IMG/VR virus record: IMGVR_UViG_2939521961_000005 | From: a virus | Lineage: Duplodnaviria > Heunggongvirae > Uroviricota > Caudoviricetes | Length of the DNA stretch: 51,153 nucleotides | Reading direction: 5' to 3' (one strand) | Shown here: piece after piece, positions 3,001-6,000 of the stretch | How the letters are laid out: each line of letters starts with the position of its first letter | How positions within the stretch are numbered: position 1 is the first letter of the stretch | Program-made: the position numbers

Positions 3001-6000
3001 CAACTGATTGGCGTCAGGCTGGCTGATATTGGCTGCCTGCATAATTTTCTTTACTTCGTCAGCGGTAACTTTTACCGGTTCTGGTTGTTCAGAATTTTGT
3101 GCGGTATTTGCATTTTGCGGTAAACCTGTGTATGTGCCATTTTTTCGGGCGAAATATTCTTCTTTCGTGATTTCAGTAGCCCCTGCAGCCAGTGCCTTAT
3201 CCAGACCAGAAAGTTTGTTTGCGCGACCGTATTTTTCGCTATCCTTGTCGGTGAAGAGGAAGTAGAACGGCCCTTCACGCTCTACAGATGGTTCGACTTC
3301 CACTTTGCATTCGGTTTTTTCGTTGTCCGGAATTGCCGTTTCCACTGCATCAGTTTCTGGTACTGGCGACGAGAGAGTATCAGTTGCGCTCTGATTTCTT
3401 CCTTCATCTTCAAACACGCCCTTTGTAGTCAGGTATTCAGTAATGTATTTGTTCAGTGCCACAGGGTCTTTGTGAATGTCGATCGGACGTTCACGGACAA
3501 GGCCAAAAATAGTCTGGCGGTCGTAGCGAAGGGCATCAGGCTGTTTGCGCATTGATGCCGAGATACGCTTCCAGTCTTCGCGGTCGTTGTCGATAACTTC
3601 TTTTTTTGCCCAGCGATGGATGCTGCCGTCAATGTTTCCGGCATCCACATCACCAGGCCAGAGAGCGTAGGCCAGTTCGTCATCCAGTGTTTTCCATGTC
3701 TGCTTGTATTCGCGATGAGTGGCAGCAATGACCGGGCTGATTTTTCCTGTTGAATTTTCAGTGTTCTGTTGATTGGCTCTGGCGCGGGCGAGATCAACAA
3801 CAGACGTGTATTTTCCGGTTTCCTTGCGTTCACCTTCGCGACGTTTTTTCCAGATGCGCATCTCTGCCTGAATTTCGGGCCATTTGGCACCAGGCTTACA
3901 TTTATGCTTAACCCACCCGATGGCATGCAGCTTAAGCTCCGGATACATGGCGTTAACTTCTGGCATTTTCATCAACGCTTCAACGATATGTCCGTCGAAT
4001 GTTGCCATGTCTTCCTGCAACAATTCCTGCGCGCTAATCACCATATCAACGGTGATGTTTTCACATGTGTCGAACTTAACCATGACAGCGTTCTGTACTT
4101 CAGGGGCCAGCTTGTCAAAAGTGACGTTCATCGGATCTGATTCAGTCTCAACCGGGACAAAGGAAGCAGACTCCTCATCCCAGCGGTTTTCCTGCATATA
4201 TTCAGCATCCCAGGAATCGAGGGCAGGGCGGGGTATACCGGGTTTATCCTCGCAAACAAGAAATTTATAAGCGCAGTCCTGAGCAGCCGGATAATGTTCC
4301 AGGAATTGCCAGTGAAATTTTGCGCGGGCGCGACGTTCATCACCGGCTTCAATGGCAGTGGCTACAGCGACTGCACCTTCTTCCTTTATTGCCTGTTCGT
4401 CCGGAATGGCGGCGCAAATAAAGACTTTACTCATTTTGTTTTACCTCATTACAGATTTAAGGGTGAACAAATCCCTGCCATTTCTGGCATATAAGAATGA
4501 AATCGGATGTTTATTACGGAACTGTTTTAAAGACCTGCCGGGATTTCGTTATTATCCTGGTGAATAACTTTATCGACAGGGTAACAGTTACCGGGAATTT
4601 TCTGTTCGGTTGCTGCAGTCACACACTCCTGCATTGTCCTGTGAACACTGACTGCAATATCAACTGGCTCTCCGGAAACAAGAAAAACTGTCAGAACAAG
4701 TGCAAATGCTGTATTCATTGCCAGCATCCTTTTTGTATCGGACGTAAACGGGCCAGCATTGAAAGAATGCATATTTTATTTAATAACTCCCGTTCGTGTT
4801 TTCTCTTGTTAATGGCATCTTCAGTAAATACAGGGTTACTGATAGTGACACCAATTTCAAAACAACCTTCAGACGTATTAACGTTTGGTAATAACGTTTC
4901 CATTATCGCGTCCTCAACAATGAATTTTGTGATGCAGTGCCTGGTGCCTCCAGGTGACGTTAACCAGTTAACAATTAACGCCGGATACAGAGAATCCACC
5001 CATAACACTGTTTTTGGTTTTAACTGTTCCGCGTGCGCTCAGCCGCATTCACCGCATCACAAAATTCACTTTAAAAAGGGCGGCAGAGCAGTCACGGAGT
5101 AAAACTGATACCGCCAAACGTCACCAGAAAATTGATAACAGAGGGCGTTGCAGCGGGGTTGTCACTTAAGCGTATGGTCAACCTGACAACCCGGTGTCCT
5201 CAATGGGGGAAGGAATAACCCCGCCATACTTACCGCCGCGCCATTTCGCGGATTGCCACAACCAGAAGCGCACGGTCGAAGAAATTTAACGACAAGACTT
5301 ATATGCAAAGGGATCTCGCCGTGCGCTTTCGTGTTATGCCCTGACTTTTCAGGGTAAATTAACCTGTGGAAACCTGTTTTTACTGGCGCTAATCAGTTAG
5401 CGTTTCTTGCTAACCAGCGATGCGCGCCAGCTTCGGTTTTAAACGTTTTACTTCTGGTATACGTCATCGCGGTAAACGTGCCGTCGTGGTTGGGGAATAC
5501 TCCGCACACCAGAGATTCATTGTTGCCAAGATTGAGCATATCCATGTTGACCTCATTTACCCTTAACGCCGGGTCGCGGAACTAAAAACCTGCTGCGCTG
5601 TTATACAAAGTGTTCCCGCCGTCATGTTCATACGCCTCGGGCTGGCTACTTAACCCCTGACCACTGCCGGGTAACTCGAGGTATTGCCCGACGTTCTGTG
5701 GGGCGAGGTAGGGTGGTATGTAATAAATCTAAAAGTATTTAGTTTTTCAGTCAAGATAAATCTAGATTAATTTAAAAAAAAAGGTCGGCATTGCCGACCT
5801 CAAGTAAAGGACGTGGCGGGTTATAAGTTGAACTGTACACCTTTTGCTACGGCAACAATTTTACACTCTGGTGTAAGTAAGGATGACTGATAGCGTGGAT
5901 TGAGAGGGCTTAAATACACAAGCTTCCCATCAATAACTAATTTCTTTATAGTCATAGATGGTTCATTTTTAAGCGGATCCGGAACTATTACAGCGACGAT

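Follow-up and report, generated by a model that had tools for sequence, protein, structure and literature searches.

Evidence for an intact dicBF-type operon in the early-left region of an enterohaemorrhagic Escherichia coli-type lambdoid prophage

Introduction

The DNA of IMG/VR record IMGVR_UViG_2939521961_000005, a stretch of 51,153 nucleotides (nt) that we call the window and to whose positions all coordinates refer, carries on its minus strand, in this order, a ydfA-like gene, a segment matching the small RNA (sRNA) DicF, dicB and a ydfD-like gene, all of them intact. The question raised by this locus is whether it represents a working division-inhibitor operon of the kind described in the Qin prophage of Escherichia coli K-12 and, if so, what it adds to those already described. 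The analysis reported here indicates that we are very probably dealing with an intact dicBF-type early-left operon of an enterohaemorrhagic E. coli (EHEC)-type lambdoid prophage. The module is confirmed but ordinary and already known, because multiple dicBF operons in EHEC prophages have been published (PMC6832061, PMC7873438, PMC10448788); taken as such, the finding matters little, being a further copy of a well-studied operon in a pathotype with multiple documented copies. Further work might be worthwhile on three items only, namely a structured leader RNA lying between DicF and dicB, the relation between DicF and the sRNA KilS, and a repressor with a degenerate protease domain.

In K-12, the only strain from which DicF processing is known, DicF is cut from a polycistronic transcript, RNase III giving a 190-nt species and RNase E the 53-nt RNA, with no internal promoter (PMC10448788). 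K-12 DicB binds MinC, whereby division is inhibited, and ManYZ is inhibited as well (PMC6832061, PMC10448788), whereas K-12 YdfD is a lysis protein that acts via inhibition of IspG (PMC8835842). Many pathogenic E. coli have several prophages with dicBF operons (PMC6832061); in particular, four dicF copies in EHEC O157:H7 and the activation of pchA by DicF are reported in the portion of PMC7873438 that cites Melson & Kendall 2019.

Results and Discussion

The DicF RNA

A first, sequence-only reading of this DNA had recognized a 53-nt segment as DicF with its terminator, naming a mismatch on direct alignment as the observation that would speak against it. The alignment with Qin returned the K-12 dicF sequence at all 53 positions (100% identity), as well as over 30 nt upstream and 24 nt downstream; in the 121-nt DicF region compared with K-12, the sole differing base lies 24 nt past the U-tail. 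A scan of the whole window at the Rfam gathering thresholds placed family RF00039 at 5129..5078 on the minus strand with 76.7 bits (gathering threshold 48, E 2.9e-15), the match spanning positions 1-52 of the 52 of the model, including the unpaired 14 nt at the 5' end. The 58-nt RNA that includes the U-tail ends in a 3' hairpin followed by UUUUU (-15.9 kcal/mol, z -2.3), on which the minimum-free-energy and centroid folds agree, so that the terminator, too, was read correctly. By its gene order and by the Qin alignment, DicF sits in a pL-type prophage operon, 5' of dicB, and is preceded by a strongly structured precursor leader (z -4.1) that corresponds to the Qin segment with the K-12 RNase III site and belongs to a block 94.6% identical to Qin.

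The O26 host and K-12 have identical translation-initiation regions of ftsZ, and the published interaction between DicF and ftsZ should therefore apply to this copy. In the predicted duplex the DicF loop GUUUUACUCCG pairs with CGGAGAGAAAC of ftsZ, in the Shine-Dalgarno region, at -38.5 kcal/mol.

DicF and its flanks are found in 3975 of 5426 complete E. coli genomes (73%), with up to 7 copies in one genome; strain 6883, which has the identical module, carries five DicF loci. In the O26 record NC_013361.1 (1477799-1478817), RefSeq has dicB and the genes for domains of unknown function (DUF) and no noncoding RNA feature for dicF, and among the matches listed from other genomes the RefSeq feature column likewise reads "none" at the DicF positions. 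The practical value of the present result is one of annotation: dicF is missing from the RefSeq annotation of the O26 record, although it is present in nearly three quarters of the complete E. coli genomes.

The module and its organization

The two genes that follow DicF had been named DicB and YdfD-like, and profile searches together with pairwise alignment uphold both names. DicB matches Pfam PF05358 (1.7e-37, 127.4 bits versus 27) and NCBIfam NF049927 (132.7 bits versus 100) over its full length and is 89% identical to K-12 DicB. The YdfD-like protein matches PF07358 (DUF1482; 3.7e-25, 88 bits versus 25) and is 94% identical to K-12 YdfD, both being of 63 amino acids (aa). The ATGA overlap between the two genes is also there: TCAT at plus-strand 4715-4718 is ATGA on the minus strand, where the dicB stop overlaps the ydfD start. 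Upstream of DicF, the YdfA-like protein (5545..5393) matches PF07151 (DUF1391; 1.3e-28, 98.8 bits versus 27.3) and is 78% identical to K-12 YdfA. A Shine-Dalgarno sequence stands before each of these three open reading frames (ORFs).

The early-left region runs in the following order: CI-like repressor gene, terminator, pL-like promoter and operators, ydfA, structured leader, DicF with its terminator, structured spacer, dicB, ydfD, exonuclease gene, xis and int. The module is therefore placed, as had been proposed, with a promoter and operator-like repeats on its 5' side and an exonuclease gene on its 3' side. The features on which the argument depends are the following.

5821..6465, minus strand: CI-like prophage repressor gene, presumed controller of the operon (Pfam HTH_3 2e-12, Peptidase_S24 5.5e-11).
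5781..5801, minus strand: terminator-like hairpin and T-run just 3' of the repressor gene (GAGGTCGGCAATGCCGACCTT then TTTTTTT; 9 pairs, 6 of them G-C).
5723..5775, minus strand: pL-like promoter region (TTGACT 5754..5749, 17-nt spacer, TAGATT 5731..5726), overlapped by two operator-like repeats.
5546..5719, minus strand: predicted untranslated leader from pL to ydfA, its start deduced from the -10 position; no plausible minus-strand gene in the ORF list.
5393..5545, minus strand: ydfA-like gene, 50 aa, DUF1391 (Pfam PF07151 1.3e-28), with a GAGG Shine-Dalgarno sequence 5 nt before the start.
5358..5401, minus strand: 44-nt junction replacing the ~500 nt of Qin with ydfB and ydfC (blastn block edges and three-way alignment with Qin and phage Tritos).
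5131..5357, minus strand: DicF precursor leader, homologous to the Qin segment with the RNase III site (190-nt species), which is expected near 5265.
5073..5130, minus strand: DicF sRNA, 53 nt at 5130..5078 and U-tail at 5077..5073 (Rfam RF00039, K-12 identity, terminator fold).
4924..5065, minus strand: structured RNA element in the DicF-dicB spacer, a multi-helix junction related to STnc100 (sub-threshold STnc100 match, covariation).
4715..4903, minus strand: dicB, 62 aa, cell-division inhibitor (Pfam and NCBIfam profiles), with a GAGGA Shine-Dalgarno sequence.
4527..4718, minus strand: ydfD-like gene, 63 aa, DUF1482 (Pfam PF07358), whose start overlaps the dicB stop (ATGA).
4476..4489, minus strand: weak terminator-like hairpin between ydfD and the exonuclease gene (TGCCAGAAATGGCA then GGGATTTGTT).
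1963..4434, minus strand: exonuclease gene, 823 aa, intact counterpart of the Qin pseudogene ydfE (Pfam Rv2179c-like 3'-5' exonuclease domain, 2.2e-67).

The hairpin at 4489..4476 is also kept in phage Evi, and its position is where a transcript like the K-12 ydfABC-dicFB-ydfD one (PMC10448788) would end. Two further ORFs were discarded as genes: one of 48 aa with a TTG start in the DicF leader (5308..5162), which has no Pfam match and whose counterpart block in Qin is non-coding, and one of 201 aa on the plus strand (4497..5102), which is antisense to three verified genes.

Only one small ORF had been noted upstream of DicF, in place of the ydfABC trio of Qin, and the operon alignment with Qin agrees, giving the same gene order minus ydfB and ydfC. 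By blastn, two blocks are shared: window 5357..4400, corresponding to Qin from 228 nt 5' of dicF into ydfE, with 94.6% identity, and window 5583..5402, corresponding to Qin ydfA and its ribosome-binding region, with 84.7% identity. Between the blocks, blastn and MAFFT alignments show that Qin and Tritos have about 500 nt with ydfB and ydfC and that the window has 44 unrelated nt; ydfB and ydfC are absent between ydfA and dicF in the window, which thus has less than the full gene set of Qin. A 121-nt probe across this junction has matches of at least 80% coverage in 411 complete E. coli genomes, and several O157:H7 strains have the short ydfA-dicF junction with 100% identity.

The 1.5-kb module is 100% identical to that of E. 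coli O26:H11 strain 11368 and of many other EHEC genomes, and the RefSeq coding-sequence coordinates agree with ours. It is also found in plaque-forming phages, namely Tritos (whose record annotates DicF), mEp460, HannyBb and several vB_Eco isolates.

Promoter, operators and the repressor

Two operator-like repeats of about 20 bp (5726-5745 and 5759-5774), of the type AATCTAA-N6-TTAGATT, overlap the pL-like promoter and match sites of the cI-cro intergenic region at 6489-6504 and 6532-6551 (families D1, D2 and I2-I4). Promoter and repeats have a classical pL/OL arrangement and would be expected to function as one.

The ORF list contains no N-like ORF between the pL-like promoter and ydfA (5546-5820), and the DicF terminator and the hairpin at 4489..4476 both precede the exonuclease, xis and int genes. 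Where the block homologous to Qin begins on its 5' side there is a hairpin, CCCUGAAAAGUCAGGG (5353..5338, minus strand), whose loop and 5' half are like those of lambda boxB. As a nut/boxB site it was put aside, there being no N-like gene and the stem being weaker in Qin and Tritos.

The repressor, a protein of 214 aa named "LexA family protein" by RefSeq and with an alternative TTG start at 6480, has an N-terminal helix-turn-helix (HTH) domain and a C-terminal S24 fold that aligns with the C-terminal domains of lambda CI and P22 C2. Compared with these two proteins, it has Thr at the position of the catalytic Ser (DDTM versus GNSM in lambda and GDSM in P22 C2) and a linker, SWGEAISF versus SWVSAGQW in P22 C2, in which the Ala-Gly/Cys-Gly site is absent; the catalytic Lys is kept (IKKL versus lambda FKKL) and is invariant in the family. 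The close homologs, from Escherichia, Salmonella, Yersinia, Sodalis, Arsenophonus and others, all have DDTM and EA-x (with I, M, K or T), and the most distant homologs retrieved by database search and placed in the family alignment keep VQAG and GDSM. Judging from this alignment, the loss of both nucleophile and cleavage site is a trait of the subfamily.

The repressor is thus probably not cleavable in the RecA-dependent SOS response: since the hallmarks of autocleavage are missing, self-cleavage stimulated directly by RecA would probably not be the route of induction. More likely inducers are an antirepressor or a spontaneous switch of the Cro type, by analogy with DicA in Qin, which has no Ala-Gly bond and whose repression is lifted by Rem, an antirepressor (PMC10448788). 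No Rem homolog was found beside hokD or anywhere in the window (no BLASTP alignment; best tblastn E 0.5), and Pfam scans recognized no antirepressor domain in the nin-region ORFs. A subfamily of S24-fold repressors without nucleophile and cleavage site would explain why EHEC prophage operons of this kind could be independent of the SOS response.

A structured RNA between DicF and dicB

The spacer between DicF and dicB contains an element (5065..4924) that ends just before the dicB Shine-Dalgarno sequence. No Rfam family reaches its threshold at 4924-5065. A permissive scan returned STnc100 (RF02076) over 5080..4871 with 35.7 bits versus 47 (E 1e-5), and ten other spacer loci score 28-44 bits; by these scores, the spacer is related to the STnc100 family and is not a member of it at the curated threshold. 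Moreover, a 21-nt block, TCACCNGGAGGCACCNGGCAC, occurs in the window only in the spacer and in a true STnc100 at 17102-17294.

In annotated phages the spacer always lies directly 5' of dicB or kilR, or of terB/tciA in the P1-like P7 and D6. Its matches in P7 and D6 were considered as homology with the c4-antisense/icd immunity region of P1, an idea discarded on their positions, which are in the ban operon, directly 5' of terB/tciA, and not in immI. The IMG/VR database was then scanned for the invariant 5' block of the spacer, giving at least 120 contigs and 103 usable units, whose downstream ORFs were classed as DicB or KilR separately by blastp. Among the 103 units, the downstream ORF encodes DicB in 55, KilR in 22, TerB in 5 and another small, mostly hydrophobic protein in 18, with none in 3; the sRNA upstream is DicF-like in 55 and KilS-like in 27, and none was detected in 21. 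Among these viral contigs, either type of sRNA can be found with the cargo typical of the other. The spacer is better conserved than either the sRNA seed regions or the downstream ORFs.

RNAalifold, applied to 66 distinct sequences, gives 35 pairs forming 6 helices round a hypervariable central arm, and 17 of the 35 pairs show compensatory changes. Standard pairs fill 96.8% of the cells (89.7 ± 0.3% in shuffled alignments), and 126 cells are changed on both sides, as against 24.7 ± 3.9 in the shuffles, none of which, out of 500, reaches the observed number; the covariation score is 0.233 (shuffled, 0.110), falling to 0.047 or less when pairing partners are slid by 1 to 3 columns. These figures are to be read knowing that the alignments used for scoring were also those from which the structure had been obtained, that retrieval by exact block match makes helix 3 and part of helix 2 invariant by construction and that many of the sequences are close relatives. 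A smaller independent set of 14 sequences gives the same covariation picture.

The spacer is also present, at 99.4% identity, in the record of Aeromonas phage AP1 (MT713136) and, at 86.5%, in that of Actinobacillus phage vB_Apl-pPE4, which has in addition kilR and a DicA-like repressor; the occurrence of an E. coli-type spacer in such records suggests chimeric assemblies or wrong host assignment.

On these grounds we tentatively propose, as an idea somewhat more open to doubt than to trust, that the spacer may be an undescribed cis-acting structured leader that forms, with an sRNA of the DicF/KilS type (KilS being a diverged paralog of DicF), a conserved two-part RNA front end that would stand, in lambdoid and P1-like phages, before exchangeable cargo genes for toxic or small membrane proteins (dicB-ydfD, kilR, terB/tciA and several small ORFs) and control their translation, stability or processing. 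Among these functions, we can speculate that a cis-acting leader governing translation or stability of the toxic cargo is the one to be favoured. The swapping of cassettes behind sRNA and leader suggests that the RNA front end, and not a particular protein, is the conserved functional core of the slot, and a leader supported by covariation is a candidate for the post-transcriptional restraint of toxic genes.

The kil position, KilR and KilS

The module had also been said to occupy the kil position of lambda. This part of the sequence-only reading stands for the Rac-type KilR, through a slot swap seen in phage Evi, and is not demonstrable for lambda Kil itself. Evi has a bona fide DicF (76.4 bits) and a complete spacer, followed by a 73-aa protein 81% identical to KilR of Rac; its kilR replaces dicB-ydfD directly 5' of the same exonuclease gene (regions compared, Evi 3731-4183 and window 4527-5130), and homology between Evi and the window resumes about 50 nt past the ydfD stop and continues into that gene. 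No alignment was obtained between dicB-ydfD and the kilR segment of Evi, while both flanks align, so that in this slot the window has no homology to KilR; dicB-ydfD and kilR are, as far as these alignments tell, alternative cassettes in one slot.

In Rac the layout is ydaF (DUF1391), the sRNA KilS, a spacer of about 176 nt and kilR. KilS, in the K-12 Rac segment 6406-6503 (minus strand), gives a sub-threshold match to the DicF model (39.1 bits versus 48, E 1.3e-6) with the same terminator stem, and its loop UUUUUUUCU can pair with GAGAGAAA through G-U wobbles. Six further phages have the same DicF-like match at the place equivalent to that of KilS. KilS looks like a diverged DicF and may be a paralog of it. 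DicF goes unmentioned in the paper in which KilS was named, and no paper with both names was found in the literature searched.

How the operon might work, and other ways of reading it

If the operon behaves as in the K-12 and EHEC experiments, the CI-like repressor would occupy the operators and keep it silent. Upon derepression, a polycistronic transcript would start about 175 nt upstream of ydfA, from which RNase III and RNase E might release DicF species of about 190 nt and 53 nt, the 3' end being that of the intrinsic terminator. With Hfq, the loop of DicF would pair with the Shine-Dalgarno region of ftsZ and block FtsZ synthesis; DicF might also regulate xylR, pykA and manX and, in EHEC, activate pchA. 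Read-through past the DicF terminator would then yield DicB, which would bring MinC to the septal ring and block division and might also inhibit the ManYZ-dependent entry of phage DNA, and the same read-through transcripts would supply YdfD, a lysis protein expected to inhibit IspG.

Several observations weigh against this account. The duplex energies were controlled with 2000 shuffles of DicF and with the start regions of 22 neighbouring genes: the DicF-ftsZ energy is not separable from that of the shuffles (z -1.5, with 153 of the 2000 as good), and the ftsZ start region ranks second among the 22 neighbouring start regions. The test is uninformative rather than negative; since the duplex energy fails to discriminate, ftsZ targeting rests on the sequence identity with the characterized K-12 RNA. 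For this copy, a consensus scan is the source of the predicted promoter, transcription start and transcript ends; it found 5 promoter-like sites where 4.4 are expected by chance. The operon, with the DicF terminator inside it, has no N-type antiterminator gene between it and pL. DicB has 7 of its 62 residues changed with respect to K-12 DicB, 4 of these in the C-terminal 8; the non-cleavability of the repressor is read from an alignment; and the prophage, with its insertion sequence (IS) elements, is possibly defective.

Among the alternatives, the one that survives best holds that the main selected role of the operon is host-beneficial regulation (activation of pchA and LEE, metabolic targets, ManYZ-dependent phage exclusion) and not a division arrest serving the phage. 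It overlaps with the explanation preferred here, invoking the same molecules with another emphasis. The accumulation of DicF copies in EHEC (up to 7 per genome, and five in strain 6883 with the identical module), the published work on host roles in EHEC and K-12 (PMC7873438, PMC6832061) and a repressor whose lack of SOS-cleavage features uncouples expression from classical prophage induction are all in agreement with it. We nevertheless consider it rather unlikely, in that the module also occurs, at the same early-left position, in functional, non-domesticated phages, and the interchangeability of dicB-ydfD with kilR, another division inhibitor, points to division inhibition as such, in the service of the phage.

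It is far less probable that the module is a silent passenger of a decaying prophage, intact in sequence, never meaningfully expressed and contributing to neither host nor phage. The IS elements (one of the IS3 family inserted at 22258-23518, one of the IS66 family close to the tail-fibre genes), the portal gene flagged as frameshifted in the 11368 record and the tight repression of the K-12 operon in laboratory conditions (PMC10448788) might be taken in this sense, but the three ORFs are intact, each with its Shine-Dalgarno sequence, DicF and its immediate flanks are fully conserved with respect to K-12, plaque-forming phages and thousands of genomes have retained the module, and EHEC DicF copies are reported to be produced microaerobically in the passages of PMC6832061 and PMC7873438 citing Melson & Kendall 2019.

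Finally, that the 53-nt segment is a mere intrinsic terminator of the ydfA transcript, without trans-acting function in this prophage, is a reading already disfavoured and hardly credible: it ends in a terminator hairpin and U-run, and the ftsZ-pairing energy was without significance, but it is fully identical to an experimentally characterized sRNA, its full-length, above-threshold match to the DicF model includes 14 unpaired 5' nt that would be superfluous in a bare terminator, and its single-stranded 5' region and loop show conservation among phages in which the flanking ORFs are exchanged.

The prophage around the module

The dicBF-type operon of strain 11368 lies in a lambdoid prophage adjoining potC, with int, xis, the 823-aa exonuclease gene, ydfD, dicB, ydfA and the "LexA family" repressor gene on the early-left side, and cro, a ydaT-like gene, replication genes, hokD/sok, a Q-like antiterminator, transfer RNA (tRNA) genes, terB and the lysis, head and tail genes on the divergent side. 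The window is identical to strain 11368 up to 16270; unlike 11368, it has the IS3-family insertion at 22258-23518 (orfA of 100 aa, orfB of 272 aa), and it is 99.3% identical thereafter. The insertion and the 99.3% identity beyond it rule out that the whole window is strain 11368, and the annotation coordinates of 11368 transfer directly for the first ~22 kb only; by this comparison, the window derives from a close relative of strain 11368, not from 11368 itself. Given the portal frameshift in 11368 and the IS insertions, the prophage is probably defective.

Other features of the prophage can be recorded here. At about 46415-49030 an IS66-family element lies between the ORFs for the N-terminal and C-terminal parts of the tail fibre, and the type III effector gene espK stands at the prophage end (49792-51153). 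A hok/sok-type toxin-antitoxin system is present at 11576-11900, its sok RNA (114.9 bits) overlapping the hokD start, and two phage tRNA genes (tRNA-Ile and tRNA-Arg in the O26 record) lie at 16080-16332, 3' of a DNA methyltransferase gene. A full-length STnc100 sRNA (17102-17294, plus strand, 141.5 bits) abuts the convergent AgvB anti-GcvB sRNA (17295-17356, minus strand, 96.5 bits, matching the consensus at every position); the pair is just 3' of terB-DUF3927 and 5' of a SASA-family esterase gene. This locus is at the late-region position held by stx genes in Stx phages, and no stx gene is annotated there (17102-17356 area).

Comparison with known systems

The kil gene of lambda, in the pL operon (cIII-gam), likewise encodes a small FtsZ-directed inhibitor and lies 5' of recombination and exonuclease genes, and it may be regarded as a functional and positional analogue of the module; it differs in having no sequence homology with it and no sRNA partner. 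The lambda pL operon also requires antitermination by N, and in the window there is no N-like gene between pL and the module.

The Rac prophage (racR-ydaG-ydaF-sieB-kilS-kilR-ydaE-racC-recE) matches the module in layout, with a DUF1391 gene, an sRNA with a DicF-type terminator, a structured spacer of about 170 nt, an FtsZ-directed inhibitor and an exonuclease. Its KilR is unrelated to DicB in sequence, and its exonuclease is RecE, not an Rv2179c-like one. KilR acts on FtsZ by a route other than that of DicB.

Among the STnc100/PasD sRNAs, the true STnc100 at 17102-17294 has its core helices in common with the spacer, along with two near-identical blocks (GGUGAAU... and UCACCNGGAGGCACCNGGCAC). 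The STnc100/PasD RNAs are stand-alone sRNAs, whereas the spacer is the 5' leader of a coding gene and has no terminator of its own.

The Qin dicBF operon (dicA, then ydfA-ydfB-ydfC-dicF-dicB-ydfD-ydfE) has the same gene order, the same orientation relative to the repressor and the same dicB/ydfD ATGA overlap, with identities of 100% for DicF, 89% for DicB, 94% for YdfD and 78% for YdfA. It differs from the operon of the window in having ydfB and ydfC in place of the 44 nt, a ydfE pseudogene disrupted by IS2 in place of an intact exonuclease gene of 823 aa, a 135-aa DicA repressor in place of one of 214 aa with HTH and S24-like domains, and the Rem antirepressor, which was not found in the window; moreover, Qin is cryptic, whereas the prophage of the window keeps replication, lysis and structural genes. 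As for the dicF copies of the EHEC O157:H7 prophages, the short ydfA-dicF junction of the window is present at 100% identity in O157:H7 genomes; four O157:H7 dicF copies have been published, and the copy described here belongs to an O26-type prophage adjoining potC.

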